From Eledone cirrhosa (lineage: Eukaryota): a DNA stretch of 64,000 nucleotides. The first letter of the stretch is position 1, and each line of letters opens with the position of its first letter. Below the pieces are notes generated by a model. The model saw only the letters and a list, made by a program, of their open reading frames with translations. It was not told the origin of the DNA and searched no databases. The position numbers and the translations under genes were made by a program. The stretch is taken from the NCBI GenBank assembly GCA_964016885.1, contig OZ024744.1, positions 50,778,001 through 50,842,000 on the forward strand. The letters are read 5' to 3'. This document shows, in pieces, positions 2,646-51,159 of the stretch.

Positions 2646-2856
2646 ATTTCATTTTTTATCTTTTATGTTACAATTTCTTGATTTTTTAAAAAAAGAAATA
2701 TCAATTTATGGCAGACATTTTTTTTTTGTTTTTTTTTTTGTATTAGTGACAACGCTGGATGGAAGTTTCATTGTTCTACATTGTGTGACATTTTTAATAT
2801 TATTCCACCACTCTTGTGTTTAAACTCTAGTTAAAAATTCCAATTTATTATGGCAG

Positions 2857-3009
2857 GAACTTATACCAGAATTCTATTACCTGCCTGAAATGTTTGTCAA
2901 CCAAAACACATTCAACTTTGGAGAACAAGACGACAACATTAAAGTGGATGATGTATGTCTTCCGCTCTGGGCACGAACACCTGATGACTTTGTCCGCATC
3001 AATAGAATG
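2857..3009 (+). CDS. NBEA: Neurobeachin/LRBA-family BEACH-domain exon A (153 bp, phase 0/0)
   Basis: ggcag acceptor and gtaaat donor. Encodes ELIPEFYYLPEMFVNQNTFNFGEQDDNIKVDDVCLPLWARTPDDFVRINRM, matching the BEACH signature ELIPEFYYLPEMF...LPPWA...FVRINRM. Confidence 0.96.
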
Positions 3010-6274: not shown

Positions 6275-6582
<308 letters not shown>

Positions 6583-7173
6583 TAGCAGTTATTAGAAGGA
6601 AGGGATAGGGCGGGGGATTGGCAGTATCCTCTACAGATGTGTTGTTGTATTTCTAAAGCTGGAAAGAATATAAATGGTTTAATAGATGAATGAAATGTTA
6701 ATAGAGAAATGGAATGAGATGGTTGGATCATGTGTTAGGTAAAGATGAAAGTGACTGGGTGAGAAGATTAGATAGAATCTGTGATGGATGTTGTGAAGAG
6801 AAATAGAATGAGATGTTTGGGCCATGTGTTGAGGAAGGATTTCAGTTTTCTTCTTCATTCTTTTAATGGTGAGACATGAAGATTTTGATATCTATCCTGA
6901 AAATATCACTTTGCAAACAAACAGCCCCAGAATCAATTCCACTGCACAACTCCTGAAGCAAGTTTCTTTTAATATAGCCATGGATTGATACAAATCTTGT
7001 GAGTAAAATTTGGCAGATGGCAACTGTTTGGAAGTCCATTTTTGAACTGTGTCTGATTATTAGTGGTGGTAGATTTAATCTGTTGTCCAGATTAACACCT
7101 CTATACATATATATATACATATATATACATATACATATATATACATATATATATATATACATATATATACATA

Positions 7174-7212
<39 letters not shown>

Positions 7213-7213
<1 letters not shown>

Positions 7214-7487
7214 ACATCCAGTCCGAAACTAATGAGGTCGTGTAGGTGACACGACAAAAAAACACACAGTCCATGCTGTAATGTGGCCGTGTAGGTAACA
7301 CGGTAAAAACCTCCCAGTCCACACTGTAAATGTGGTTGGTGTTAGGAAAGGCATCCAGCCGTAGAAAACCCGCCAGACAGTCCTATACGAGCAAGACAAC
7401 CAATCTTGCCTCAAGTGGGAAAATTCCCATCCAAACCTATGCAAGCGTAGAAGATGGACGTTAAACGATGATGATGATGATGATGAT
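7213..7487 (+). mobile_element. RTE LINE 3'UTR fragment with (GAT)n tail
   Basis: Near-identical to 39251-39525, which directly follows an RTE ORF end. Confidence 0.8.
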
Positions 7488-8448
7488 TCTCACCTGGACC
7501 TCCTTTAGCAGTTTTATTGGATTAATGATCACTGATTATAATTATTCTGATACATTCTATAATGTGAGGTTAGATAACCTTCTATCTTAATGTAATAGTC
7601 CTTATATCAGTAGCCCGGGAGTCGGAAGTCATGGTTCCCCTGCTCCCAGGCACAGAGGATATGTAAAGCATCCTCTCACTAATCCAGAAGTTTCCAAACT
7701 GTATCACAGAATTAAGTCAGATCTGATCGATTTTTACCAATATTTGGCTGTGAATTATCTTGTTTAGAATATGTCACTAAACATCTTTGCCATGTTGCAG
7801 CATTGTAGAAATATCTAAGTGGTGGCGAAGGTTGAATGGTGTTGTCATATATTAAATGATTTGGTATGGGTGAGTGTAAACTGTGTAGTGAAAAATGTAG
7901 GCTTGGTAATTTTTGTAGTGTGGACAGAGCAAGATGTGTCAAAAACTAAGTTTGTCAGCTTACCAAACTGTTAAGTTGATATTATTTTATTTTGAGAGAA
8001 TGAGGCACATAACAAGGAGATGGCAGGGGTAGGGGTTACACACAGAGGTAGCCTAAGGCATTAAATACCTAGGCACCAGCTCTGCACGTGACTAGTGACA
8101 CATGATATATTTAAGTGTTTATTTATTAATTTTGTTAATTACATGTCACTAACAAATCCCAATTAATGTGTCATGAAAAACTTTGGAAAGTTCTAGCATG
8201 AGCCATATCAAAAAAATATATATATAAATAATAATAATAATGTTCTCATTGAAACATATTTTAAACTGTGCAGCCATTTGTTACTGAAACCCATCTCAAT
8301 TTTGTTACTGGTCTATGACAGTCTTGGTTGCTTAGGTAACATATGACTCATTTCCAATGAACTGATCATCATTACTTTCTTTTGCTGTTGTTGTTGTTTT
8401 GGCTTACCTATGAGGTTGCATCCCATAAGAGGTGGTCTCTTGGGTGTT

Positions 8449-8553
8449 TTAATCTTTTTGTTACCAACCCAGCCAAAACTGGCTCTGGTTCTATGTAACA
8501 AAACAACCCATTTTAAAGATTTCCTATCCAAATAAAATCCTCCAACTTAATTT
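8449..8553. mobile_element. Left half of a piggyBac-type MITE (family 2) interrupted by the satellite
   Basis: Starts at TTAA and is colinear with the first ~105 bp of the intact copy at 27344-27571 (GCTCTGGTTC.ATG.AACAAAAC.ACC.ATTTTAAA.ATTTCCTAT). Confidence 0.75.
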
Positions 8554-11500
8554 GTCCACTCTGTGAACTGGTACTGCAGGTGCCACAATAAAAGACACCC
8601 TGCTCACACTGTAAAGTGGTAATGATGGTGCCACGATAAAACATACTCAGCCTACACTGTAATGTGGTAGAGATGGTGCCACAATAAAACACACTCAGTC
8701 TACACTGTAAAGTGGTAGTGATGGTGCCACAATAAAACACACTCAGTCTACACTGTAAAGTGGTAGAGATGGTGTCACAATAAAACATAGTCAGTCTACA
8801 CTGTAAAGTGGTAGTGATAGTGCCACAATAAAACATACTCAGTCTACACTGTAAAGTGGTAGAGATGGTGTCACAATAAGACACTCAGTCTACACTGTAA
8901 AGTGGTAGTGATGGTGCCACAATAAAACATACTCAGCCTACACTGTAAAGTGGTAGTGATGGTGCCACAATAAAACACACTCAGTCTACACTGTAAAGTG
9001 GTAGAGATGGTACCACAATAAGACACTCAGTCTACACTGTAAAGTGGTAGTGATGGTGCCACAATAAGACACTCAGTCTACACTGTAAAGTGGTAGAGAT
9101 AGTGTCACAATAAGACACTCAGTCTACACTGTAAAGTAGTAGAGATGGTGTCACAATAAGACACTCAGTCTACACTGTAAAGTGTTAGTGATGGTGCCAC
9201 AATAAAACACACTCAGTCTACACTGTAAAGTGGTAGTGATGGTGCCACAATAAAACACACTCAGTCTACACTGTAAAGTGGTAGTGATGGAGCCACAATA
9301 AAACACACTCAGTCTACACTGTAAAGTGGTAGAGATGGTGTCACAATAAGACACTCAGTCTACACTGTAAAGTGGTAGTGATGGTGCCACAATAAAACAC
9401 ACTCAGTCTACACTGTAAAGTGGTAGTGATGGTTCCACAATAAAACACTCTCAGTCTACACTGTAAAGTGGTAGAGATGGTGTCACAATAAGACACTCAG
9501 TCTACACTGTAAAGTGGTAGTGACGGTGCCACAATAAAACACACTCAGTCTACACTGTAAAGTGGTAGTGATGGTGCCACAATAAAACATACTCAGTCTA
9601 CACTGTAAAGTGGTAGAGATGGTGTCACAATAAGACACTCAGTCTACACTGTAAAGTGGTAGTGATGGTGCCACAATAAAACATACTCAGTCTACACTGT
9701 AAAATGGTAGAGATGGTGTCACAATAAGACACTCAGTCTACACTGTAAAGTGGTAGTGATAGTGCCACAATAAAACACACTCAGCCTACACCGTAAAGTG
9801 GTAGTGATTGTGCCACAACAAAACACACTCAGTCTACACTGTAAAGTGGTAGTGATGGTGCCACAATAAAACACACTCAGTCTACACTGTAAAGTGGTAG
9901 TGACGGTGCCACAATAAAACACACTCAGTCTACACTGTAAAGTGGTAGTGATGATGCCACAATTAAACACACTCAGTTTACACTGTAAAGTGGTAGTGAT
10001 GGTGCCACAATAAAACACACTCAGTCTACACTGTAAAGTTGTAGTGATGGTGCCACAATAAAACACACTCCGTCTACACTGTAAAGTGGTAGTGATGGTG
10101 CCACAATAAGACACTCAGTCTACACTGTAAAGTGGTAGTGATGGTGCCACAATAAAACATACTCAGTCTACACTGTAAAGTGGTAGAGATGGTGTCAAAA
10201 TAAGACACTCAGTCTACACTGTTAAGTGGTAGTGATGGTGCCACAATAAAACACACTCAGTCTACACTGTAAAGTGGTAGTGTTGGTTCCACAATAAAAC
10301 ATACCTAGTCTACACTGTAAAGTGGTAGTGATGGTGCCACAATAAAACATACTCAGTCTACACTGTAAAGTGGTAGTGTTGGTTCCACAATAAAAAATAC
10401 TCAGTCTACACTGTAAAGTGGTAGTGATGGTGCCACAATAAAACATACTCAGTCCACACTGTAAAGTGGTAGTGATGGTGCCACAATAAAACACACTCAG
10501 TCTACACTGTAAAGTGGTAGAGATGGTGTCATAATAAAACACACTCAGTCTACACTGTAAAGTGGTAGTGATGGTGCCACAATAAGACACTCAGTCTACA
10601 CTGTAAAGTGGTAGTGATGATCCCACAATAAAACATACTGAGCCTACACTGTAAAGTGGTAGTGATGGTGTCACAATAAGACACTCAGTCTACACTGTAA
10701 AGTGGTAGTGATTGTGCCACAATAAAACACACTCAGTCTACACTGTAAAGTGGTAGTGTTGGTTCCACAATAAAACATACTCAGTCTACACTGTAAAGTG
10801 GTAGTGATGGTGCCACAATAAAACACACTCAGTCTACACTGTAAAGTGGTAGAGATTGTGCCACAATAAAACACACTCAGTCTACACTGTAAAGTGGTAG
10901 TGATGGTGCCACAATAAAACACACTCAGTCTACACTGTAAAGTGGTAGAGATGGTGCCACAATAAGACACTCAGTCTACACTGTAAAGTGGTAGTGACGG
11001 TGCCACAATAAAACACACTCAGTCTACACTGTAAAGTGGTAGTGATGGTGCCACAATAAAACATACTCAGTCTACACTGTAAAGTGGTAGTGATGGTGCC
11101 ACAATAAACCACACTCAGCCTACACTGTTAAGTGGTAGTGATGGTGCCACAATAAAACACACTCAGTTTACACTGTAAAGTGGTAGTGACGGTGTCACAA
11201 TAAGACACTCAGTCTACACTGTAAAGTGGTAGTGATGGTGCCACAATAAAACATACTCAGTCTACACTGTAAAGTGTTAGAGATGGTGTCACAATAAGAC
11301 ACTCAGTCTACACTGTAAAGTGGTAGTGATTGTGCCACAATAAAACACACTCAGTCTACACTGTAAAGTGGTAGTGTTGGTTCCACAATAAAACATACTC
11401 AGTCTACACTGTAAAGTGGTAGTGATGGTTCCACAATAAAACACACTCAGTCTACACTGTAAAGTGGTAGAGATTGTGCCACAATAAAACACACTCAGTC

Positions 11501-14500
11501 TACACTGTAAAGTGGTAGTGATGGTGCCACAATAAAACATACTCAGTCTACACTGTAAAGTGGTAGTGATGGTGCCACAATAAAACACACTCAGTCTACA
11601 CTGTAAAGTGGTAGTTATGGTGCCACAATAAAACACACTCAGTCTACACTGTAAAGTGGTAGTGATGGTGCCACAATAAAACATACTCAGTCTACACTGT
11701 AAAGTGGTAGTGATGGTGCCACAATAAAACACACTCAGTCTACACTGTAAAGTGGTAGTGATGGTGCCACAATAAAACATACTCAGTCCACTCTGTAAAG
11801 TGGTAGTGATGGTGCCACAATAAAACACACTCAGTCTACACTGTAAAGTGGTAGAGATGGTGTCATAATAAAACACACTCAGTCTACACTGTAAAGTGGT
11901 AGAGATGGTGCCACAATAAGACACTCAGTCTACACTGTAAAGTGGTAGTGATGATACCACAATAAAACACACTCAGTCTACACTGTAAAGAGGTAGTGAC
12001 GGTGCCACAATAAAACATACTCAGTCTACACTGTAAAGTGGTAGTGATGGTGCCACAATAAAACATACTCAGTCTACACTGTAAAGTGGTAGTGATGGTG
12101 CCACAATAAACCACACTCAGCCTACACTGTAAAGTGGTAGTGATGGTGCCACAATAAAACATACTCAGTCTACACTGTAAAGTGGTAGTGATGGTGACAC
12201 AATAAAACACACTCAGTCTACACTGTAAAGTGGTAGTGACGGTGTCACAATAAGACACTCAGTCTACACTGTAAAGTGGTAGTGATGGTGCAACAATAAA
12301 ACATACTCCGTCTACACTGTAAAGTGGTAGTGATGGTGCCACAATAAAACATACTCAGTCTACACTGTAAAGTGGTAGTGGTGGTGCCACAATAAAACAT
12401 ACTCAGTCTACACTGTAAAGTGGTAGTGATGGTGCCACAATAAAACACTCAGTCTACACTGTAAAGTGGTAGTGATGGTGCAACAATAAAACGCACTCAG
12501 CCTACACTGTAAAGTGGTAGAGATGGTGTCACAATAAAACATACTCAGCCTACACTGTAAAGTGGTAGAGATGGTGTCAATAAAACATACTCAGTCTACA
12601 CTGTAAAGTGGTAGTGATGTTGCCACAATAAAATACTCAGTCTACACTGTATAAGTGGTAGTGATGGTGTCACAATAAGACACTAAGTCTACACTGTAAA
12701 GTGGTAGTGATGGTGCCACAATAAAACACACTCAGTCTACACTGTAAAGTGGTAGTGTTGGTTCCACAATAAAACATACTCAGTCTACACTGTAAAGTGG
12801 TAGTGATGGTGCCACAATAAAAAATACTCAGTCTACACTGTAAAGTGGTAGTGATGGTGCCACAATAAAACATACTCAGTCCACACTGTAAAGTGGTAGT
12901 GATGGTCCCACAATAAAACACTCAGTCTACACTGTAAAGTGGTAGAGATGGTGTCATAATAAAACACACTCAGTTTACACTGTAAAGTGGTAGTGATGGT
13001 GTCACAATAAGACACTCAGTCTACACTGCAAAGTGGTAGTGATGGTGCCACAATAAGACACTCAGTCTACACTGTAAAGTGGTAGTGATGGTCCCACAAT
13101 AAAACATACTCAGCCTACACTGTAAAGTGGTAGTGATGGTGTCACAATAAGACACTCAGTCTACACTGTAAAGTGGTAGTGATGGTGCCACAATAAAACA
13201 CACTCAGTCTACACTGTAAAGTGGTAGAGATGGTGCCACAATAAGACACTCAGCCTACACCGTAAAGTGGTAGTGATTGTGCCACAACAAAACACACTCA
13301 GTCTACACAGTAAAGTGGTAGTGATGGTGCCACAATAAAACACACTCAGTCTACACTGTAAAGTGGTAGTGACGGTGCCACAATAAAACACACTCAGTCT
13401 ACACTGTAAAGTGGTAGTGATGATGCCACAATTAAACACACTCAGTTTACACTGTAAAGTGGTAGTGATGGTGCCACAATAAAACACACTCAGTCTACAC
13501 TGTAAAGTTGTAGTGATGGTGCCACAATAAAACACACTCAGTCTACACTGTAAAGTGGTAGTGATGGTGCCACAATAAGACACTCAGTCTACACTGTAAA
13601 GTGGTAGTGATGGTGCCACAATAAAACATACTCAGTCTAAACTGTAAAGTGGTAGATATGGTGTCACAATAAAACATACTCAGCCTACACTGTAAAGTGG
13701 TAGAGATGGTGTCAATAAAACATACTCAGTCTACACTGTAAAGTGGTAGTGATGTTGCCACAATAAAATACTCAGTCTACACTGTATAAGTGGTAGTGAT
13801 GGTGTCACAATAAGACACTAAGTCTACACTGTAAAGTGGTAGTGATGGTGCCACAATAAAACACACTCAGTCTACACTGTAAAGTGGTAGTGTTGGTTCC
13901 ACAATAAAACATACTCAGTCTACACTGTAAAGTGGTAGTGATGGTGCCACAATAAAAAATACTCAGTCTACACTGTAAAGTGGTAGTGATGGTGCCACAA
14001 TAAAACATACTCAGTCCACACTGTAAAGTGGTAGTGATGGTCCCACAATAAAACACTCAGTCTACACTGTAAAGTGGTAGAGATGGTGTCATAATAAAAC
14101 ACACTCAGTTTACACTGTAAAGTGGTAGTGATGGTGTCACAATAAGACACTCAGTCTACACTGCAAAGTGGTAGTGATGGTGCCACAATAAGACACTCAG
14201 TCTACACTGTAAAGTGGTAGTGATGGTCCCACAATAAAACATACTCAGCCTACACTGTAAAGTGGTAGTGATGGTGTCACAATAAGACACTCAGTCTACA
14301 CTGTAAAGTGGTAGTGATGGTGCCACAATAAAACACACTCAGTCTACACTGTAAAGTGGTAGAGATGGTGCCACAATAAGACACTCAGCCTACACCGTAA
14401 AGTGGTAGTGATTGTGCCACAACAAAACACACTCAGTCTACACAGTAAAGTGGTAGTGATGGTGCCACAATAAAACACACTCAGTCTACACTGTAAAGTG

Positions 14501-17500
14501 GTAGTGACGGTGCCACAATAAAACACACTCAGTCTACACTGTAAAGTGGTAGTGATGATGCCACAATTAAACACACTCAGTTTACACTGTAAAGTGGTAG
14601 TGATGGTGCCACAATAAAACACACTCAGTCTACACTGTAAAGTTGTAGTGATGGTGCCACAATAAAACACACTCAGTCTACACTGTAAAGTGGTAGTGAT
14701 GGTGCCACAATAAGACACTCAGTCTACACTGTAAAGTGGTAGTGATGGTGCCACAATAAAACATACTCAGTCTAAACTGTAAAGTGGTAGATATGGTGTC
14801 ACAATAAGACACTCAGTCTACACTGTTAAGTGGTAGTGATGGTGCCACAATAAAACACACTCAGTCTACACTGTAAAGTGGTAGTGATGGTGCCACAATA
14901 AAACATACTCAGTCCACTCTGTAAAGTGGTAGTGATGGTGCCACAATAAAACACACTCAGTCTACACTGTAAAGTGGTAGAGATGGTGTCATAATAAAAC
15001 ACACTCAGTCTACACTGTAAAGTGGTAGAGATGGTGCCACAATAAGACACTCAGTCTACACTGTAAAGTGGTAGTGATGATACCACAATAAAACACACTC
15101 AGTCTACACTGTAAAGAGGTAGTGACGGTGCCACAATAAAACATACTCAGTCTACACTGTAAAGTGGTAGTGATGGTGCCACAATAAAACATACTCAGTC
15201 TACACTGTAAAGTGGTAGTGATGGTGCCACAATAAACCACACTCAGCCTACACTGTAAAGTGGTAGTGATGGTGCCACAATAAAACATACTCAGTCTACA
15301 CTGTAAAGTGGTAGTGATGGTGACACAATAAAACACACTCAGTCTACACTGTAAAGTGGTAGTGACGGTGTCACAATAAGACACTCAGTCTACACTGTAA
15401 AGTGGTAGTGATGGTGCAACAATAAAACATACTCCGTCTACACTGTAAAGTGGTAGTGATGGTGCCACAATAAAACATACTCAGTCTACACTGTAAAGTG
15501 GTAGTGGTGGTGCCACAATAAAACATACTCAGTCTACACTGTAAAGTGGTAGTGATGGTGCCACAATAAAACACTCAGTCTACACTGTAAAGTGGTAGTG
15601 ATGGTGCAACAATAAAACGCACTCAGCCTACACTGTAAAGTGGTAGAGATGGTGTCACAATAAAACATACTCAGCCTACACTGTAAAGTGGTAGAGATGG
15701 TGTCAATAAAACATACTCAGTCTACACTGTAAAGTGGTAGTGATGTTGCCACAATAAAATACTCAGTCTACACTGTATAAGTGGTAGTGATGGTGTCACA
15801 ATAAGACACTAAGTCTACACTGTAAAGTGGTAGTGATGGTGCCACAATAAAACACACTCAGTCTACACTGTAAAGTGGTAGTGTTGGTTCCACAATAAAA
15901 CATACTCAGTCTACACTGTAAAGTGGTAGTGATGGTGCCACAATAAAAAATACTCAGTCTACACTGTAAAGTGGTAGTGATGGTGCCACAATAAAACATA
16001 CTCAGTCCACACTGTAAAGTGGTAGTGATGGTCCCACAATAAAACACTCAGTCTACACTGTAAAGTGGTAGAGATGGTGTCATAATAAAACACACTCAGT
16101 TTACACTGTAAAGTGGTAGTGATGGTGTCACAATAAGACACTCAGTCTACACTGCAAAGTGGTAGTGATGGTGCCACAATAAGACACTCAGTCTACACTG
16201 TAAAGTGGTAGTGATGGTCCCACAATAAAACATACTCAGCCTACACTGTAAAGTGGTAGTGATGGTGTCACAATAAGACACTCAGTCTACACTGTAAAGT
16301 GGTAGTGATGGTGCCACAATAAAACACACTCAGTCTACACTGTAAAGTGGTAGAGATGGTGCCACAATAAGACACTCAGCCTACACCGTAAAGTGGTAGT
16401 GATTGTGCCACAACAAAACACACTCAGTCTACACAGTAAAGTGGTAGTGATGGTGCCACAATAAAACACACTCAGTCTACACTGTAAAGTGGTAGTGACG
16501 GTGCCACAATAAAACACACTCAGTCTACACTGTAAAGTGGTAGTGATGATGCCACAATTAAACACACTCAGTTTACACTGTAAAGTGGTAGTGATGGTGC
16601 CACAATAAAACACACTCAGTCTACACTGTAAAGTTGTAGTGATGGTGCCACAATAAAACACACTCAGTCTACACTGTAAAGTGGTAGTGATGGTGCCACA
16701 ATAAGACACTCAGTCTACACTGTAAAGTGGTAGTGATGGTGCCACAATAAAACATACTCAGTCTAAACTGTAAAGTGGTAGATATGGTGTCACAATAAGA
16801 CACTCAGTCTACACTGTTAAGTGGTAGTGATGGTGCCACAATAAAACACACTCAGTCTACACTGTAAAGTGGTAGTGTTGGTTCCACAATAAAACATACC
16901 TAGTCTACACTGTAAAGTGGTAGTGATGGTGCCACAATAAAACATACTCAGTCTACACTGTAAAGTGGTAGTGTTGGTTCCACAATAAAAAATACTCAGT
17001 CTACACTGTAAAGTGGTAGTGATGGTGCCACAATAAAAAATACTCAGTCTACACTGTAAAGTGGTAGTGATGGTGCCACAATAAAACATACTCAGTCCAC
17101 ACTGTAAAGTGGTAGTGATGGTGCCACAATAAAACACACTCAGTCTACACTGTAAAGTGGTAGAGATGGTGTCATAATAAAACACACTCAGTCTACACTG
17201 TAAAGTGGTAGTGATGGTTCCACAATAAGACACTCAGTCTACACTGTAAAGTGGTAGTGATGATCCCACAATAAAACATACTGAGCCTACACTGTAAAGT
17301 GGTAGTGATGGTGTCACAATAAGACACTCAGTCTACACTGTAAAGTGGTAGTGATGGTGCCATAATAAAACACACTCAGTCTACACTGTAAAGTGGTAGT
17401 GATGGTGCCACAATAAACCACACTCAGCCTACACTGTTAAGTGGTAGTGATGGTGCCACAATAAAACACACTCAGTTTACACTGTAAAGTGGTAGTGACG

Positions 17501-20500
17501 GTGTCACAATAAGACACTCAGTCTACACTGTAAAGTGGTAGTGATGGTGCCACAATAAAACATACTCAGTCTACACTGTAAAGTGTTAGAGATGGTGTCA
17601 CAATAAGACACTCAGTCTACACTGTAAAGTGGTAGTGATGGTGCCACAATAAAACACACTCAGTCTACACTGTAAAGTGGTGGTTATGGTGCCACAATAA
17701 AACACACTCAGTCTACACGGTAAAGTGGTAGTGATGGTGCCACAATAAAACATACTCAGTCTACACTGTAAAGTGGTAGTGATGGTGCCACAATAAAACA
17801 CACTCAGTCTACACTGTAAAGTGGTAGTGATGGTGCCACAATAAAACATACTCAGTCCACTCTGTAAAGTGGTAGTGATGGTGCCACAATAAAACACACT
17901 CAGTCTACACTGTAAAGTGGTAGAGATGGTGTCATAATAAAACACACTCAGTCTACACTGTAAAGTGGTAGAGATGGTGCCACAATAAGACACTCAGTCT
18001 ACACTGTAAAGTGGTAGTGATGATACCACAATAAAACAAACTCAGTCTACACTGTAAAGAGGTAGTGACGGTGCCACAATAAAACATACTCAGTCTACAC
18101 TGTAAAGTGGTAGTGATGGTGCCACAATAAAACATACTCAGTCTACACTGTAAAGTGGTAGTGATGGTGCCACAATAAACCACACTCAGCCTACACTGTA
18201 AAGTGGTAGTGATGGTGCCACAATAAAACATACTCAGTCTACACTGTAAAGTGGTAGTGATGGTGACACAATAAAACACACTCAGTCTACACTGTAAAGT
18301 GGTAGTGACGGTGTCACAATAAGACACTCAGTCTACACTGTAAAGTGGTAGTGATGGTGCAACAATAAAACATACTCCGTCTACACTGTAAAGTGGTAGT
18401 GATGGTGCCACAATAAAACATAATCAGTCTACACTGTAAAGTGGTAGTGGTGGTGCCCCAATAAAACATACTCAGTCTACACTGTAAAGTGGTAGTGATG
18501 GTGCCACAATGAAACTCAGTCTACACTGTAAAGTGGTAGTGATGGTGCAACAATAAAACGCACTCAGCCTACACTGTAAAGTGGTAGAGATGGTGTCACA
18601 ATAAAACATACTCAGCCTACACTGTAAAGTGGTAGAGATGGTGTCAATAAAACATACTCAGTCTACACTGTAAAGTGGTAGTGATGGTGCCACAATAAAA
18701 TACTCAGTCTACACTGTAAAGTGGTAGTGATGGTGTCACAATAAGACACTAAGTCTACACTGTAAAGTGGTAGTGATGGTGCCACAATAAAACACACTCA
18801 GTCTACACTGTAAAGTGGTAGTGTTGGTTCCACAATAAAACATACTCACTCTACACTGTAAAGTGGTAGTGATGGTGCCACAATAAAAAATACTCAGTCT
18901 ACACTGTAAAGTGGTAGTGATGGTGCCACAATAAAACATACTCAGTCCACACTGTAAAGTGGTAGTGATGGTCCCACAATAAAACACACTCAGTCTACAC
19001 TGTAAAGTGGTAGTGATGGTGTCACAATAAGACACTCAGTCTACACTGTAAAGTGGTAGTGATGGTGCCACAATAAGACACTCAGTCTACACTGTAAAGT
19101 GGTAGTGATGGTCCCACAATAAAACATACTCAGCCTACACTGTAAAGTGGTAGTGATGGTGTCACAATAAGACACTCAGTCTACACTGTAAAGTGGTAGT
19201 GATGGTGCCACAATAAAACACACTCAGTCTACACTGTAAAGTGGTAGAGATGGTGCCACAATAAGACGCTCAGTCTACACTGTAAAGTGGTAGTGATGGT
19301 ACCACAATAAAACACACTCAGTCTACACTGTAAAGTGGTAGTGACGGTGCCACAATAAAACACACTCAGTCTACACTGTAAAGTGGTAGTGATGGTGCCA
19401 CAATAAAACATACTCAGTCTACACTGTAAAGTGATAGTGATGGTGCCACAATAAACCACACTCAGCCTACACTGTAAAGTGGTAGTGATGGTGCCACAAT
19501 AAAACACACTCAGTCTACACTGTAAAGTGGTAGTGATGGTGCCACAATAAAACACACTCAGTCTACACTGTAAAGTGGTAGTGATGGTGCCACAATAAAA
19601 CACTCTCAGTCTACACTGTAAAGTGGTAGTGATGGTGCCACAATAAGACACTCAGTCTACACTGTAAAGTGGTATTGATGGTGCCACAATAAAACATACT
19701 CAGTCTACACTGTCAACTGGTAGAGATGGTGTCACAATAAGACACTCAGTCTACATTGTAAAGTGGTAGTGATGGTGCCACAATAAAACACACTCAGTCT
19801 ACACTGTAAAGTGGTAGAGATGGTGTCATAATAAAACACACTCAGTCTACACTGTAAAGTGGTAGAGATGGTGCCACAATAAGACACTCAGTCTACACTG
19901 TAAAGTGGTAGTGATGGTACCACAATAAAACACACTCAGTTTACACTGTAAAGTGGTAGTGACGGTGCCACAATAAAACACACTCAGTCTACACTGTAAA
20001 GTGGTAGTGACCGTGCCACAATAAAACACACTCAGTCTACACTGTAAAGTGGTAGTTATGGTGCCACAATAAAACATACTCAGTCTACACTGTAAAGTGG
20101 TAGTGATGGTGCCACAATAAACCACACTCAGCCTACACTGTAAAGTGGTAGTGATGGTGCCACAATAAAACATACTCAGTCTACACTGTAAAGTGGTAGT
20201 GATGGTGCCACAATAAAACACACTCAGTCTACACTGTAAAGTGGTAGTGACGGTGTCACAATAAGACACTCAGTCTACACTGTAAAGTGGTAGTGATAGT
20301 GCCACAATAAAACACTCTCAGTCTACACTGTAAAGTGGTAGTGATGGTGTCACAATAAAACATACTCAGTCTACACTGTAAAGTGGTAGTGATGGTGCCA
20401 CAATAAAACACACTCAGTCTACACTGTAAAGTGGTAGTGATGATGCCACAATAAGACACTCAGTCTACCCTGTAAAGTGGTAGTGATGGTGCCACAATAA

Positions 20501-23355
20501 AACATACTCAGCCTACACTGTAAAGTGGTAGTGATGGTGTCACAATAAGACACTCAGTCTACACTGTAAAGTGGTAGAGATGGTCCAACAAAAGAACACA
20601 CTCAGTCTACACTGTAAAGTGGTAGTGATGGTGCCACAATAAAACACACTCAGTCTACACTGTAAAGTGGTAGTGATGGTGCCACAATAAAACATACTCA
20701 GTCTACACTGTAAAGTGGTAGTGATGGTGTCACAATAAGACACTCAGTCTACACTGTAAAGTGGTAGAGATGGTCCAACAATAAAACACACTCAGTCTAC
20801 ACTGTAAAGTGGTAGTGACGGTGCCACAATAAAACATACTCAGCCTACACTGTAAAGTGGTAGTGATGGTGCCACAATAAGACACTCAGTCTACACTGTA
20901 AAGTGGTAGTGATGGTGCCACAATAAAACATACTCAGTCTACACTGTAAAGTGGTAGTGATGGTGCCACAATAAAACACTCAGTCTACACTGTAAAGTGG
21001 TAGTGATAGTGCCACAATAAAACACACTCAGTCTACACTGTAAAGTGGTAGTGATGGTGCCACAATAAAACACACTCAGTCTACACTGTAAAGTGGTAGT
21101 GTTGGTTCCACAATAAAACATACTCAGTCTACACTGTAAAGTGGTAGTGATGGTGCCACAATAAAAAATACTCAGTCTACACTGTAAATTGGTAGTGATG
21201 GTGCCACAATAAAACATACTCAGTCCACACTGTAAAGTGGTAGTGATGGTCCCACAATAAAACACACTCAGTCTACACTGTAAAGTGGTAGAGATGGTGT
21301 CATAATAAAACACACTCAGTTTACACTGTAAAGTGGTAGTGATGGTGTCACAATAAGACACTCAGTCTACACTGTAAAGTGGTAGTGATGGTGCCACAAT
21401 AAGACACTCAGTCTACACTGTAAAGTAGTAGTGATGGTCCCACAATAAAACATACTCAGCCTACACTGTAAAGTGGTAGAGATGGTGCCACAATAAGACA
21501 CTCAGTCTACACTGTAAAGTGGTAGTGATGGTACCACAATAAAACACACTCAGTCTACACTGTAAAGTGGTAGTGACGGTGCCACAATAAAACACACTCA
21601 GTCTACACTGTAAAGTGGTAGTGATGGTGCCACAATAAAACATACTCAGTCTACACTGTAAAGTGATAGTGATGGTGCCACAATAAACCACACTCAGTCT
21701 ACACTGTAAAGTGGTAGTAATGGTGCCACAATAAAACACACTCAGTCTACACTGTAAAGTGGTAGTGATGGTGCCACAATAAAACACTCTCAGTCTACAC
21801 TGTAAAGTGGTAGTGATGGTGCCACAATAAGACACTCAGTCTACACTGTAAAGTGGTATTGATGGTGCCACAATAAAACATACTCAGTCTACACTGTCAA
21901 CTGGTAGAGATGGTGTCACAATAAGACACTCAGTCTACACTGTAAAGTGGTAGTGATGGTGCCACAATAAAACACACTCAGTCTACACTGTAAAGTGGTA
22001 GAGATGGTGTCATAATAAAACACACTCAGTCTACACTGTAAAGTGGTAGAGATGGTGCCACAATAAGACACTCAGTCTACACTGTAAAGTGGTAGTGATG
22101 GTACCACAATAAAACACACTCAGTTTACACTGTAAAGTGGTAGTGACGGTGCCACAATAAAACACACTCAGTCTACACTGTAAAGTGGTAGTGACGGTGC
22201 CACAATAAAACACACTCAGTCTACACTGTAAAGTGGTAGTTATGGTGCCACAATAAAACATACTCAGTCTACACTGTAAAGTGGTAGTGATGGTGCCACA
22301 ATAAACCACACTCAGCCTACACTGTAAAGTGGTAGTGATGGTACCACAATAAAACATACTCAGTCTACACTGTAAAGTGGTAGTGATGGTGCCACAATAA
22401 AACACACTCAGTCTACACTGTAAAGTGGTAGTGACGGTGTCACAATAAGACACTCAGTCTACACTGTAAAGTGGTAGTGATAGTGCCACAATAAAACACT
22501 CTCAGTCTACACTGTAAAGTGGTAGTGATGGTGTCACAATAAAACATACTCAGTCTACACTGTAAAGTGGTAGTGATGGTGCCACAATAAAACACACTCA
22601 GTCTACACTGTAAAGTGGTAGTGATGATGCCACAATAAGACACTCAGTCTACCCTGTAAAGTGGTAGTGATGGTGCCACAATAAAACATACTCAGCCTAC
22701 ACTGTAAAGTGGTAGTGATGGTGTCACAATAAGACACTCAGTCTACACTGTAAAGTGGTAGAGATGGTCCAACAATAAAACACACTCAGTCTACACTGTA
22801 AAGTGGTAGTGATGGTGCCACAATAAAACACACTCAGTCTACACTGTAAAGTGGTAGTGATGGTGCCGCAATAAAACATACTCAGTCTACACTGTAAAGT
22901 GGTAGTGATGGTGTCACAATAAGACACTCAGTCTACACTGTAAACTGGTAGAGATGGTCCAACAATAAAACACACTCAGTCTACACTGTAAAGTGGTAGT
23001 GACGGTGCCACAATAAAACATACTCAGCCTACACTGTAAAGTGGTAGTGATGGTGCCACAATAAGACACTCAGTCTACACTGTAAAGTGGTAGTGATGGT
23101 GCCACAATAAAACATACTCAGTCTACACTGTAAAGTGGTAGTGATGGTGCCACAATAATACACTCAGTCTACACTGTAAAGTGGTAGTGATAGTGCCACA
23201 ATAAAACACACTCAGTCTACACTGTAAAGTGGTAGTGATGGTGCCACAATAAAACATACTCAGTCTACACTGTAAAGTGGTAGTGATGGTGCCACAATAA
23301 AACACTCAGTCTACACTGTAAAGTGGTAGTGATAGTGCCACAATAAAATGCACTC
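8554..23355. repeat. ~14.8-kb intronic satellite array of 46-48-bp monomers (about 310 copies by length) with higher-order repeats
   Basis: Consensus CTCAGTCTACACTGTAAAGTGGTAGTGATGGTGCCACAATAAAACACA (48 bp), plus a 46-bp ...CACAATAAGACA variant. Identical ORF-track entries recur at offsets 1135, 3126 and 2184 bp. Confidence 0.98.
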
Positions 23356-23446
23356 AAATTATTAATAAATTCAAACATCTAACACATGCAGCCATGGAAA
23401 ATAGACATTAAACGGTGATAATGGTGATGGTGATGATAATGATGAT

Positions 23447-23573
23447 TAGGAACCTTTTGTTACAAATACCATCTTAATAATAAAATAATTAATAATTTTA
23501 GTAAATTACTCCAAATTATTATTAAATTCAAACATAGCATATGTCATTAGAGATATGGTTATGAAAGAGTTAA
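23447..23573. mobile_element. Right half of the piggyBac-type MITE interrupted by the satellite
   Basis: Colinear with the second half of 27344-27571 (TTAATAATTTTAGTAAAT...TCATTAGA.ATA.G.T..TGAA.G.GTTAA) and ends at TTAA. Confidence 0.75.
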
Positions 23574-23681
23574 TGATAGAGAACATAGTCTTATCATGTT
23601 CTATTTTATTTACACTTATTTTTTTCAATCTATGGTGAAATATTCAATTAAATATGATATGTTTACATATCTATATACTCA

Positions 23682-23684
<3 letters not shown>

Positions 23685-23764
<80 letters not shown>

Positions 23765-23792
23765 CGTCTCTCTCTCTCTCTCCGTCTCTCTC
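23685..23792. repeat. (CT)n microsatellite
   Basis: Read directly from the sequence. Confidence 0.95.
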
Positions 23793-23874
23793 TGTGTATA
23801 GTGTAGGTGATTCAGTGCATTGCTGATTGTGGTACCGATATGAGCACGCAATGCACAGGCAGAGTGTATATATT

Positions 23875-24152
23875 AAGAAAAACTGATGAAGTATGGTTTA
23901 TATATGATTTTATTGAGTATCGACCTATTATGCGCGTTTCACAGATGATTGGCTCAAGACCACCTATGGAAGTTATGGATCTGACTTAGTATCTATCTGC
24001 TCTGAATCACTAATCCGACAAGTAGATCAATACTTGAGTCGGGATCATAGCTTCCATAGGTGACCTCGAGTTGAGCCAATCATCTGCGAATAACAGGTCG
24101 CTACTCAATAAAAACATTAACATGTAAACAAAAAACTTCAACGGTTTTTCTT
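23875..24152. mobile_element. Foldback/MITE-like imperfect palindrome (~280 bp)
   Basis: AAGAAAAAC..TTATTGAGTA.CGACCT.TTAT..CAGATGATTGGCTCAA..CACCTATGGAAG is mirrored in reverse complement on the right arm. Confidence 0.8.
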
Positions 24153-24158
24153 GTACAT

Positions 24159-24497
24159 GCACATGGCTTAGTGGTTAGAGCATTGGCCTTGCAATTGAAA
24201 GGTTGTGAGTTCAATTCTCAGACCGGCTGATGTGTTGTTTCCTTGAGCAAGACACTTTATTTCACATTGCTCCAGTTTACTCAGCTGTATAAAATGAAAT
24301 GATAGGGACTGGGGTCCCTATCATTCCACTGCAAAGTGGTCGTGGAGGTGCCACGGCAAAAAGGCACCCAGCACTCACTGTAAATGAGGTTGGTGTTAGG
24401 AAGGACATCCAGCTGTAGAAATCAAGCCAGAATCAGTTCCCGTCCCACCCTTGCAAGCAGGGAAAAAGCGGATGTAAAATGAAATGATGAAATGATG
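24159..24497 (+). mobile_element. tRNA-derived SINE family A, full length
   Basis: A box TGGCTTAGTGG, B box GAGTTCAATTC, central body, and an RTE-like 3' end CCCGTCCCACCCTTGCAAGCAGGGAAAA...GTAAAATGA. Confidence 0.9.
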
Positions 24498-24840
24498 AAA
24501 ATGATGCACACAACACACAATCTCAATCCTTTTCTGTATCATTACAACTATCATTTTACATCTGTTTTCTATGCTGGCATGGGTAAGATGCAGTTGTCAT
24601 GGTCTGAAACTATACAGTTTAGTTTCTATGGCTGGATGCCCTTCTTAATGCCAACCACTTTACAGAGTGTACTGGGTGCATCTTCTCATGGCACCAGTAC
24701 TACTACTTTACAGAATGGACTAGGTGTATTTTTTTGTAACAGCAGCACTAGAGAGGTTTTCATATGCTGGACAACACTGAAGAGTCTTCGCTATCCTGTA
24801 TCTGTACAGATAATTATTTATGTTTTGTTTTTGTTTCCAG

Positions 24841-24935
24841 GACCTGAAGCAGTTAGGGCTACGAATGTCTTTTATTATTTAACCTATGAAGGAAGTGTCA
24901 ACCTGGAATCTATGACTGATCCAGTTATGAAAGAG
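24841..24935 (+). CDS. NBEA: Neurobeachin/LRBA-family BEACH-domain exon C (95 bp, phase 1/0)
   Basis: ttccag acceptor and gtaag donor. Completes the split Gly codon and encodes [32 protein letters not shown]. Confidence 0.97.
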
Positions 24936-25321
24936 GTAAGTTATTATTGCTTCATTTATTACACAATCTAAGAATCATATTTTCTAAACTTCATCAAAGT
25001 AAAGAAAACTTATGAGAGGATTGGTGTCAGGACATTAAGATATAAAATACTGCCTCAAAAAGCTCTGTCCAACGGATGCCAATTTAGAAAATTGAACATG
25101 AAAACAATGATAATGGTTATATATATATTTATTTAGGTTTGTTGGTTTACCACTGGATAGAACTGGTCATTCCATATGGTCAACCTCAATGTAATATTAT
25201 GGAGAGCACTCAACGTAATGCAACTCACCCGTCTTCATTTGTGTAGTTGGTGGTGCGAGTACGGAGTTAATTATTATAAAATAACAGGAGGCTGGACTGG
25301 TGTAATTCCTTAAGGTTTATT

Positions 25322-26832: not shown

Positions 26833-26922
26833 GCCATAGAAAACCAGATCCGCAGTTTTGGCCAGACCCCCACCCAACTTCTAACTGAACCTCACCCGCC
26901 AAGGAGTTCTTTAATGCACCTG
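26833..26922 (+). CDS. NBEA: Neurobeachin/LRBA-family exon D, end of the BEACH domain (90 bp, phase 0/0)
   Basis: cacag acceptor and gtaag donor. Encodes [30 protein letters not shown], containing the FGQTP.QL...HP.R signature. Confidence 0.97.
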
Positions 26923-27343: not shown

Positions 27344-27571
27344 CCCATCTGACACCAACACAAACCCACAAACCAGCTCTGGTTCAATGAAACAAAACCA
27401 CCTATTTTAAATATTTCCTATTTAAATTAAAATTGTCCAACATAATTTTAATATAAGAACCATATCTTATGACCTTAGTAATGGATTAGTTAATAATTTT
27501 AGTAAATCCCTAGAAAATTTTTAATTAATTAAAATAGAATGTATTTCATTAGAAATAGGTTCGTGAAGGGG
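27344..27571. mobile_element. piggyBac-type MITE (family 2), uninterrupted but diverged copy
   Basis: TTAA-CCC...GGG-TTAA ends; related decayed copies near 28505-28673, 40350-40530, 41100-41500, 44800-45250 and 46277-46620. Confidence 0.75.
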
Positions 27572-39933: not shown

Positions 39934-41599
39934 ACATATATATATATATATAGGACATGGCATATATATATACACATATATATATACACACACATATATA
40001 TATATATATATACAAATATATATATATACACCTATATAAACACATATATATATATATACAGAGAGAGAGAAAGAGACATACAAGTATATATATGTATGTG
40101 TGGTGTGTGTGTGTGGAACTGCATTTTGCCTAATTACTTTTCAAACTTGTGATGATTTTAATGAAATAAATTCCTGAAGAAACAATTGACCCTGTAATAG
40201 AAACTAAATACATAAATAACACCAAATAAAAGCCAATTGAAAAGAGAAATAATTTTGAAAATACCTGACCCTATCAAGAAGCTGTATGATATTTTGTTGT
40301 GTGTATTTAGTGATTGTTTATATGTCAAAATTAAATCTTTTGATAGCAACCCACTTGGAACCAGGCCTGGTCCTAAGATACAAAGCCGTTTATCTTAAAC
40401 TGCTTATATTTAGCTGAAAACAGGAAGTGTGTCATTTACTAAATCCCAAGGAATTCTTCATTATTTTCAAAATTATTTGAAAATAATAGTTAGTGTCTTT
40501 CATTAGAAATATGGTAACGAAAGGGTTAAAGTGTTCATATTTTTCTTAAAACCTACCATCCATAATTATATGTAAGAACCTTTGTTAAGTAATGTTCCAA
40601 ACACCAACATAATAATGAGAAAGTTAGTTATTCCCCCCAAATCCTCCATTATTTTCAAAATTCTTTGAACACCATAGATAAATTGGGGGAAAAATTACTT
40701 TTTCAACAGTCTACATTATCAGATCATTTAGAAAAGGTTGTAAGAAGTAAAAGTCTCCTCCATAGTGTATTAAACCTTAGACAAGACACTCCACTCTATA
40801 TGAATACATTAAGATATCTTAACCTTAGGCAGAAACTAGCAGAAAACTGCCCGATTTTTTACAGAACATGTTAAGTTAAACACACACTAATATAAAGAAA
40901 ATGCACTAACATATTTATGATATACAAATGAATGTTCATATAACCATCATAAAATCCATCAGAACTTCTTCATATTTTTTTTTTTTTTTTTTTTTTTTTG
41001 TAATTAACAATGCTACTGATTTCCTAATTTCCATCAAGATAATGTCCTAATCCCACAGTAGATTAATTTATTAGTAGATGGCATTAATCCACCTGAAACA
41101 AACATATTCATGTTGACACCCCCCCAAAACTATCACTGGTTTTCTGAAACAAAGCCATCCATTTTAAAGCGTTCCTATTTAAATGAAACACTTCCAATAT
41201 AATTTTAAATTGGAACCATATGTTAAGTTACTGTTTTAGTAATGAAGTAATAAATAATTTTAGTAAATTCCTCGAAATTCTTCATTGACCCTTTTGATAT
41301 CAACCCAGCCCAAAATCACCTCTGGATCTCTGAAACAAAACCATCTATTTTAAAGAGAGTTCTTATTTAAATTAAAACCACCATCCCACATAATTTTATA
41401 TAAGAACCACATGTTACTATTTGAGTAATGAAATCATTAATAATTTTAGTAAATTTCTCAAAACTCTTCATTAACTAATTGAAATAAAGTGTATTTCATT
41501 AGATATAAGTTTTTTGTTTTTTTTTAATGTTGTAAGGACCTGCAATCTCCCACAGTACCCACCTAAACTATGACTTACAGTTTTAAACTAACACCTATG

Positions 41600-50104: not shown

Positions 50105-51080
50105 ATCATCATCATCACCGTTTTACGTCCGTTCTTCCACGCTAGCATGGGTTAGACGGGTTATCCTGTTGTGGGTAGTGTCCGGTCGGCTGACCTTGTC
50201 TTGCTCATACAGGAATTGATTCTGGCTTGATTTCTACAGCTGGATGCCCTTCCTAACACCAACCTCATTTACAGTGAGTGCTGGGTGCTTTTTTTCCATG
50301 GCACCTCCACGTCCACTTTACAGTGTAGCTGGGTGCTTTTTTGCCATAGCACCTCCACGACCACCTTGCAGTGGGAGGGTGTGGGGGCATATTGTCTAGA
50401 TGCTTCAGCTTGTACCCATGGGAGGTCAGGTACTCTGTATTACTGCGTGACGCCAGAGGTCACGGTCGTGTATCATCGCCTTTGAGAGGTGTAATTGGGT
50501 AAGGTCGGCTTTTATCACCTCATCCCAGGTCTTCTTGGGTCTCCCCACTCCGCAGTTTCCATCGACTTCTAGTGCTCTGCACCTTTTTATGCAGCTGTCA
50601 TCCTTCATACGCATCACATGTTCATACCAATGCACACAGCATTTGATTCCTCTTATGCTCAGTCTCTCTCTCAATTCATTTATGCTTTGCCGTTTGTGTA
50701 TATTATTACTATTACATATCCAACGGAGCATGAAGGCTTCGTTTCTCTCTAATCTACGTAAGTCTTCCACAGACAGCGCCCAGGTCTCACTACCATGTAA
50801 CATTGCTGTTCGTATACACGCATCATACAGTCTGCCTTTCATTTTGAAGGAAAAGCCTTTTGCAGCTAGCAGTGGCAGTAGCTCCCTGAACTTCTTCCAT
50901 CCCATTCTTACTCTAGTTATTGTACTTTCCGAACACCCACCTCCACTGCTAATTTGGTCACCTAGGTAGCAGAAGCTGTCTACTGTTTCTACAGAGCCCT
51001 CCCAGAGATTGGTGGTACTTGTTTCCTGTGGCTGTTTGCTGCTTGCTGTCCCAGCACAGCTGCTACATGTGAAACCTACA
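50105..51080 (-). mobile_element. RTE LINE 3' fragment with complete 3'UTR and (GAT)n tail
   Basis: ORF 50426..50905 reads GWKKFRELLPLL...MLHGSETW...GRPKKTW. The UTR carries tandem ~47-bp modules. Further UTR copies at 54612-54965 and 61410-61523. Confidence 0.92.
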
Positions 51081-51088
51081 TTCTTAGT

Positions 51089-51159
<71 letters not shown>

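Follow-up and report, generated by a model that had tools for sequence, protein, structure and literature searches.

How did a satellite array of 14.8 kb come to occupy most of an intron, and did it grow where it now stands or arrive already formed? The window analysed here, the 64,000-nucleotide stretch at positions 50,778,001-50,842,000 of contig C28 in a 3.0-Gb assembly of Eledone cirrhosa, holds four exons (A to D) of a predicted neurobeachin-family gene, among repeats that appear octopod-like. The intron between exons B and C contains a 48-bp tandem array lying between the two halves of a MITE (miniature inverted-repeat transposable element) of piggyBac type. An earlier note on this DNA had proposed that a retroposon inserted into the MITE, and that one internal module of the retroposon was then amplified about 300-fold. 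Our analysis makes it very probable that the array is a retroposon-derived satellite, likely grown at this site out of a 48-bp unit that was present in tandem beforehand at the 3' end of a long or short interspersed nuclear element (LINE or SINE), after a truncated copy of such an element had entered the MITE, and that related units are arrayed at dozens of other loci. Contigs and loci elsewhere in the genome are cited below by our C and L numbers.

The sequences on either side of the array are the two parts of a single MITE. We built a 240-bp MITE consensus from 33 genome copies and the intact copy in the window, and a closer subfamily consensus from 17 copies. The genome search for the MITE gave 2,415 first-look candidates, of which the best 40 were scored; in all our genome searches, those for exact patterns excepted, only the best candidates were scored. 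Each half aligned to the consensus with a score far above the maximum of its 300 shuffle controls (Table 1). When rejoined, the halves were colinear with the subfamily consensus, with 206 of 235 columns identical and one base absent at the junction, which confirms the earlier claim that two halves of one TTAA-flanked element bracket the array. The intact relative that had been pointed out downstream likewise has TTAA on both sides. In the focal copy TTAA is present at 8449 and 23570 and the terminal repeats have decayed; among the 33 copies, TTAA is kept on the left in 29, on the right in 30 and on both sides in 26. At its ends the consensus has an inverted repeat of 14 bp, imperfect and beginning CCC, and both ends match 4 of the 20 piggyBac-transposase (PF13843) loci examined (L260, L263, L265 and L267) at 84-89% over 27-37 bp. 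Since these ends are common to the MITE and to piggyBac transposase loci, the label "piggyBac-type" is appropriate. The family is short and of high copy number (240 bp; 2,415 first-look candidates), and in its TTAA flanks, CCC..GGG ends, short imperfect terminal repeats, lack of an open reading frame (ORF) and ends shared with transposase-bearing elements it is like other piggyBac-derived MITEs, with nothing unusual about it.

Other MITE copies are also interrupted. Two copies in the window, at 47424-47081 (-) and 47038-46541 (-), are split near the same site as the focal copy, one by a 191-bp retroposon 3' end and the other by a different element of 334 bp with a 12-bp target duplication. The breakpoints of 6 of 9 split copies fall at consensus positions 106-117 (p ~1e-5 if breakpoints are uniform and 1e-4 without the focal copy, in a small and partly search-selected sample), and these positions are possibly an insertion hot spot. 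A MITE fragment also lies in a tandem duplication of period 186 at 41123-41511 of the window. A separate, near-identical 2.6-kb piggyBac family (L251-L259, L261, L262 and L266) has open 561-aa frames in several copies and is apparently young; its ends are unlike those of this MITE past the first bases.

The kind of element that entered the MITE can be read from relatives of the array unit. In LINEs of this genome the unit stands in 2-3 diverged tandem copies 3' of the ORF end, followed by a conserved core and then by a tail as at 23385-23446 in the window. We found 27 places with an ORF end and a core, and the ORFs of two of them (L090 and L137) match RVT_1 with E values of 3e-32 and 5e-15; these LINEs are sister subfamilies and not the exact parent. 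In the module-bearing LINEs the reverse transcriptase is followed by a PHD-type finger, with PF00628 above cut-off in L090 and L137. The same units are borne by a SINE (L207, L223) with a head that, judged by eye, is tRNA-like. No tRNA-like head with A and B boxes was found between 8553 and the array; as the insert begins at the first unit, it may have come from a LINE or from a SINE. The starting state is likely represented by copies (L062, L270 and L272) in which 4-12 units precede a core and tail that are intact. Because the module was already tandem in the parent element, the window array is the expansion of a built-in variable number tandem repeat. The proposed amplification of one internal module has to be amended as to the module, which was not single to begin with.

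The retroposon may be of RTE type, to judge by the C-terminal motif and the microsatellite tail. RTE tails have been tied to target choice (PMC6007223), and microsatellite 3' ends are frequent in RTEs according to PMC9115989. The insertion site in the window reads TTT^GAT, so the (GAT)n tail is carried on by the GAT of the target. TGAT is common to tail and target, and a target duplication amounts to 0-2 bp at most. Among (GAT)n tails in the window and at L186-L224, 8 of 30 are directly followed by ATAT, a hint that (AT)n or GAT-like targets are preferred.

The array had been described as running into this tail. The tail is present as described, but the join is not direct, as a 24-bp copy of MITE sequence stands between the two in place of the core (Table 1). 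The distance from an anchored unit to the tail motif is 50 bp here and 107-199 bp in 10 aligned relatives. The 24-bp insert has 1 mismatch to the local MITE, compared with 3 for the best among 2.34 million other positions, shares a small deletion particular to that MITE copy, and is flanked on both sides by short shared words. Templated insertion with flanking short shared words is the pattern of microhomology-mediated end joining, and the insert probably arose by templated repair. Same-species contigs agree exactly with the assembly over 7520-8477 and 23330-23410, the latter interval being covered by a contig of run X15 with no difference; these may derive from the assembled individual.

The array itself was recovered by Tandem Repeats Finder (TRF) as one tract of period 48 with 312 copies and 90% matches, in agreement with the earlier figures of about 300 copies and about 80% of an 18.3-kb intron. 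Splitting at a fixed anchor gave 308 units, comprising 224 of 48 bp, 80 of 46 bp and 4 of other lengths, with 99 distinct units among them. The mean distance of a unit from the array consensus is 1.8 positions per 48, and any other consensus is at least 6 away. This variant is private to the locus. A 70-mer spanning two units matches the genome 23 times, each time within the window array, which also holds 108 of 112 matches of a 28-mer and 147 of 153 of a 24-mer, the matches outside being single deviants in elements or in arrays of other consensus. Of the 48-mers in the window, 223 of 224 are nearest to their own consensus; conversely, 2 of 2,651 foreign monomers lie nearer to the window consensus than to theirs, and no foreign monomer comes within 4 differences of it. 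The closest monomer from elsewhere is 5/48 away, and the closest consensus 6/48.

The edges of the array have kept an older state. The array consensus differs from the family majority at 7/48 positions, and the first monomer is closer to the family majority than to the array (Table 1); the last unit, too, retains ancestral letters. The first monomers (8554-8640) had been called the most diverged, which holds for the first, with 12 differences, and not for the second, which has 4 differences from the array consensus, the same as 38 of the 308 units, and is no outlier. We found no gradient of divergence across the array past the first unit (bin means 1.65-2.9). Nor is there a fixed higher-order repeat: no lag is dominant, and the best, of 64 units, gives 18% identical pairs and is due to block duplications. 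Such internal duplications are 0.3-2.0 kb long and 97-99.9% identical, the largest copies being of 1,992 bp (99.9%), 1,807 bp (98.8%) and 1,656 bp (98.1%); the 1,992-bp pair lies at 11685-13676 and 14811-16802, with a spacing of 3,126 bp. This indicates repeated block duplication within the array, some of it recent and long after the insertion, for the age of which the MITE halves, at ~12% divergence, give a yardstick. The private variant and the ancestral-like first monomer make it likely that the array grew where it is, by duplication of blocks. Together with the colinear MITE halves, these observations support the order of MITE, retroposon and local amplification that the earlier note had put forward.

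That note also implied that a satellite origin preserved in place is rare. It is commonplace in this genome. Searching from an unexpanded relative, and so among search-selected loci, we found 35 runs beyond that of the window which pass a filter of at least 4 anchors and at least 3 48-mers; they lie on many contigs, and two are halves of one array. The runs span ~5 to 1,233 units, with arrays of 59 kb on C1, 24 kb on C28 and at least 13 kb on C1, and of 6.3, 5.7 and 4.4 kb elsewhere. With the window's own, the 36 runs have 32 distinct consensuses, while 4 repeat the consensus of another run, which suggests some spread or shared seeding. By loose matching, a core within 70 bp or a tail motif downstream is found in 16 of the 35 sibling runs. 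In 39 stretches of 10 kb taken at even spacing and without selection (390 kb), there were 34 module-bearing elements, most with 1-2 units, and 3 arrays of at least 12 units by TRF, in 2 of the stretches. This extrapolates to ~23,000 arrays genome-wide, with a 95% range of 4,800-67,000 if they are independent. Uniqueness of the event in the window is ruled out by sibling arrays at dozens of loci.

Some of these arrays are of interest in themselves. The largest, at ~110,042,500-110,101,600 of C1 (L091-L095, L176-L177), has ~1,233 sibling 48-bp units over 59 kb, is 7/48 from the window consensus, and ends in a partial core adjoining the left half of a MITE, which breaks off at position 109. We considered whether this array, too, lies within a split MITE and rejected it, as the left half (1-109) is at the 3' end only and the right half is absent at the other end. 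At ~36,329,900-36,335,200 of C12 (L230) a 120-bp unit of the same retroposon family, which contains the 48-bp module, is arrayed with 95% matches, so a second unit size amplifies too. Unrelated arrays of 3.9 to at least 10 kb, with units of 57, 94, 52 and 64 bp, occur in 4 of the 39 sampled stretches (L186, L188, L215 and L224), showing that long minisatellites are common in this genome.

The abundance of siblings is an argument for an array, or a sizeable seed of one, that was inserted ready-made, whether retrotransposed or copied from another family array by gene conversion or circular DNA. The earlier note had held that arrays of the same monomer at many loci with unrelated flanks would point this way; we find this for the monomer family, and not for the exact variant. 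The consensuses repeated between runs are in keeping with such transfer, and the copies with 4-12 units and intact core and tail mean that the inserted copy may have had more than 3 units. However, the window variant is present at no other locus, the exact patterns being 96-100% confined to it, and its edge monomers are ancestral-like. The private variant in particular makes ready-made insertion unlikely, although it is the strongest of the alternatives.

We give slightly less weight still to an effect of the array on its host gene. The four exons join by GT-AG splicing into a single open 145-aa frame, and all match the Pfam Beach domain (PF02138) on consecutive stretches of the profile, 2 over and 2 under cut-off. 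Among PDB structures, exon A is closest to Neurobeachin (1mi1, E 7e-20), with LRBA next, in agreement with the earlier assignment to a neurobeachin intron. Judged from these translations, the BEACH domain of the host gene appears closest to NBEA/LRBA, the gene being known here from four BEACH exons. The array has 230 AATAAA hexamers on the + strand and 0 on the - strand, with 4 in the remaining intron, and these sense-strand hexamers could in principle cause premature 3'-end formation and so alter neurobeachin expression. The flanking exons are nevertheless intact and in frame. The hexamer is also found in many sibling consensuses, so that in the window array it was probably inherited rather than selected locally. 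Most likely the array does no more than fill the intron and is neutral. A search of Rfam over 23200-25000 gave 4 matches, every one under the gathering score.

A further possibility, which we regard as quite improbable, is that the length of the array is in part an assembly artefact, a shorter array having been inflated by a falsely duplicated block. The 1,992-bp block, repeated at 99.9% at a distance of 3,126 bp, is what such an error might produce. Against this, the window is free of N, the 99 distinct units follow a non-periodic order, the graded identities of the block copies (97-99.9%) fit real duplications, and ~12 kb of array remains even without the near-perfect block. Least credible of all is a composite of MITE and retroposon that arrived as one element and carries a satellite seed round the genome, since, although other MITE copies are also split near positions 106-117, one of them by a related retroposon (L168), no match across either junction was found outside the locus among the best 40 candidates scored per junction, the other splits differ in their inserts and breakpoints, and the terminal repeats of the focal copy are decayed.

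Growth in place following a nested insertion is thus the reading we prefer, and its steps would be as follows. The starting point would be a MITE at the site of the intron, whose halves still rejoin without rearrangement. A 5'-truncated retroposon copy may have been inserted there by target-primed reverse transcription at TTT^GAT, bringing with it the unit as 2-3 tandem copies ahead of core and tail, the arrangement seen in LINE 3' untranslated regions (UTRs) and in the tRNA-headed SINE. An internal copy would then have diverged into the private variant and multiplied, whether by unequal exchange or through replication-based duplication of blocks, with ancestral-like units left at both edges. 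A break was probably repaired by microhomology-mediated joining, removing the core and copying 24 bp from the MITE 157 bp downstream.

Several points weigh against this reconstruction. No target-site duplication is clear enough to establish that one retrotransposition event took place, and with the core lost the insert is not an intact element, so that its parent may have been a LINE or a SINE. The parent framing is not universal, as 19 of the 35 sibling runs have no recognisable core or tail just downstream. The length of the array and the 99.9% block are as given by the assembly, and no contig across the left junction was seen among those listed. An orthologous short allele was likewise not seen among the listed contigs of runs X1, X2 and X3, which is no evidence of its absence: in run X1, from another organism, one contig covers 7520-7986 with 44 differences and none listed crosses the junctions, and runs X2 and X3 gave short repeat matches only, among the matches listed.

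Table 1. Features of the array locus and its host gene; coordinates are those of the window unless a locus is named.
Feature	Position	Strand	Observations
Left MITE half including TTAA, consensus 1-106	8449..8553	+	91/106 identical; score 149, shuffle maximum 44; terminal repeat decayed
First monomer, likely retroposon 5'-truncation point	8554..8604	+	Unhomogenised; 9/48 from family majority, 12/48 from array consensus
48/46-bp tandem array	8554..23356	+	~312 copies, 14.8 kb; consensus private to locus; multi-kb internal block duplications
24-bp insert in place of retroposon core (~100 bp lost)	23355..23378	+	23/24 match to 23512-23535 in right MITE half
Retroposon 3' tail ending (GAT)n	23379..23446	+	Common to LINEs and a SINE of this genome
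Right MITE half including TTAA, consensus 111-240	23447..23573	+	101/131 identical; score 139, shuffle maximum 65
Intact MITE copy	27344..27571	+	TTAA on either side
BEACH exon A, neurobeachin/LRBA-family gene	2831..3009	+	PF02138 62 bits; PDB Neurobeachin E 7e-20
BEACH exon B, 5' side of host intron	6463..6535	+	PF02138 43 bits; AG..GT boundaries
Host intron B-C	6536..24840	+	18,305 bp; array 80.9%
BEACH exon C, 3' side of host intron	24841..24935	+	PF02138 21 bits, under cut-off alone; in frame once spliced
BEACH exon D	26833..26922	+	PF02138 23 bits, under cut-off alone; in frame once spliced
Module-bearing LINE copies with PHD-type finger	L090:3634-5241; L137:2-1183; window 50429-51154 (-)		PF00628 in L090, L137

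We compared the array with known systems as these are described in the papers cited. The closest are the SINE-derived satellites (sSats) of squamates, which have from a few to hundreds of units per locus (320 in a cobra and nearly 950 in the glossy snake) and in which long loci are ~90% homogeneous with alternating subvariants; their occurrence beyond squamates was uncertain to the authors (Vassetzky et al. 2023, PMC10702118). As in sSats, part of a short retroposon is in tandem here and parent sequence is kept at one end (PMC10702118), and the window array has the sSat-type features that we tested, namely a unit homologous to part of a retroposon, the parent tail at the array end and homogenisation within the array. 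It differs in that the unit is 48 bp, compared with ~70-290 bp, that it was already tandem in the parent and is common to LINE 3' UTRs and a SINE, that consensuses are mostly private to a locus, whereas those of snakes are similar between loci, and that the host is an invertebrate. In Lathyrus sativus, short tandem arrays borne by retrotransposons also occasionally expand in place (Vondrak et al. 2020, PMC7004042); those are plant long terminal repeat (LTR) elements whose arrays grow mainly at primary constrictions, in contrast to a non-LTR element in a gene intron here. Other mini- and satellites derived from transposable elements include Alu minisatellites, satellites from CR1 and L1 3' UTRs, and the MITE-borne miDNA4 and Xstir (PMC9659126). 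The window array is like these in being a tandem repeat from a non-LTR 3' region or within a MITE; unlike in miDNA4 and Xstir, where the unit is MITE-derived, the MITE is here the landing site only. No description of the 48-bp satellite family was found in the literature searched, which included the covered parts of PMC13282606, PMC12988792, PMC9115989, PMC4824008 and PMC4758252; one may exist in the Repbase and Dfam libraries, in supplements or in papers under subscription such as Ohshima and Okada (1994).

Because arrays derived from transposable elements and nested insertions are well known, and multi-kb arrays are plentiful in this genome, this locus is of little consequence taken alone. 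It makes a neat example for teaching, since the empty site is fixed by the MITE halves and the way in which the unit has changed can be read from the monomers at the edges. Taken together, the family is more interesting, with one retroposon module seeding arrays at a number of loci estimated, from the sampled stretches, at 5,000-67,000. We lean towards the view that one 48-bp module, seeded by LINE and SINE 3' ends, has given rise to satellites independently, thousands to tens of thousands of times, as arrays of 2 to more than 1,200 copies that have each been homogenised, within the parent insertion, to a consensus of their own, and that are undescribed for this animal group in the literature searched. 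If true, the origin and growth of satellites would here have been replicated by nature on a massive scale, and the many replicates would let predictors of expansion be tested, including seed copy number, unit sequence, chromosome position and gene context. The family would also extend SINE-derived satellites past squamates, and bear on intron and genome size.

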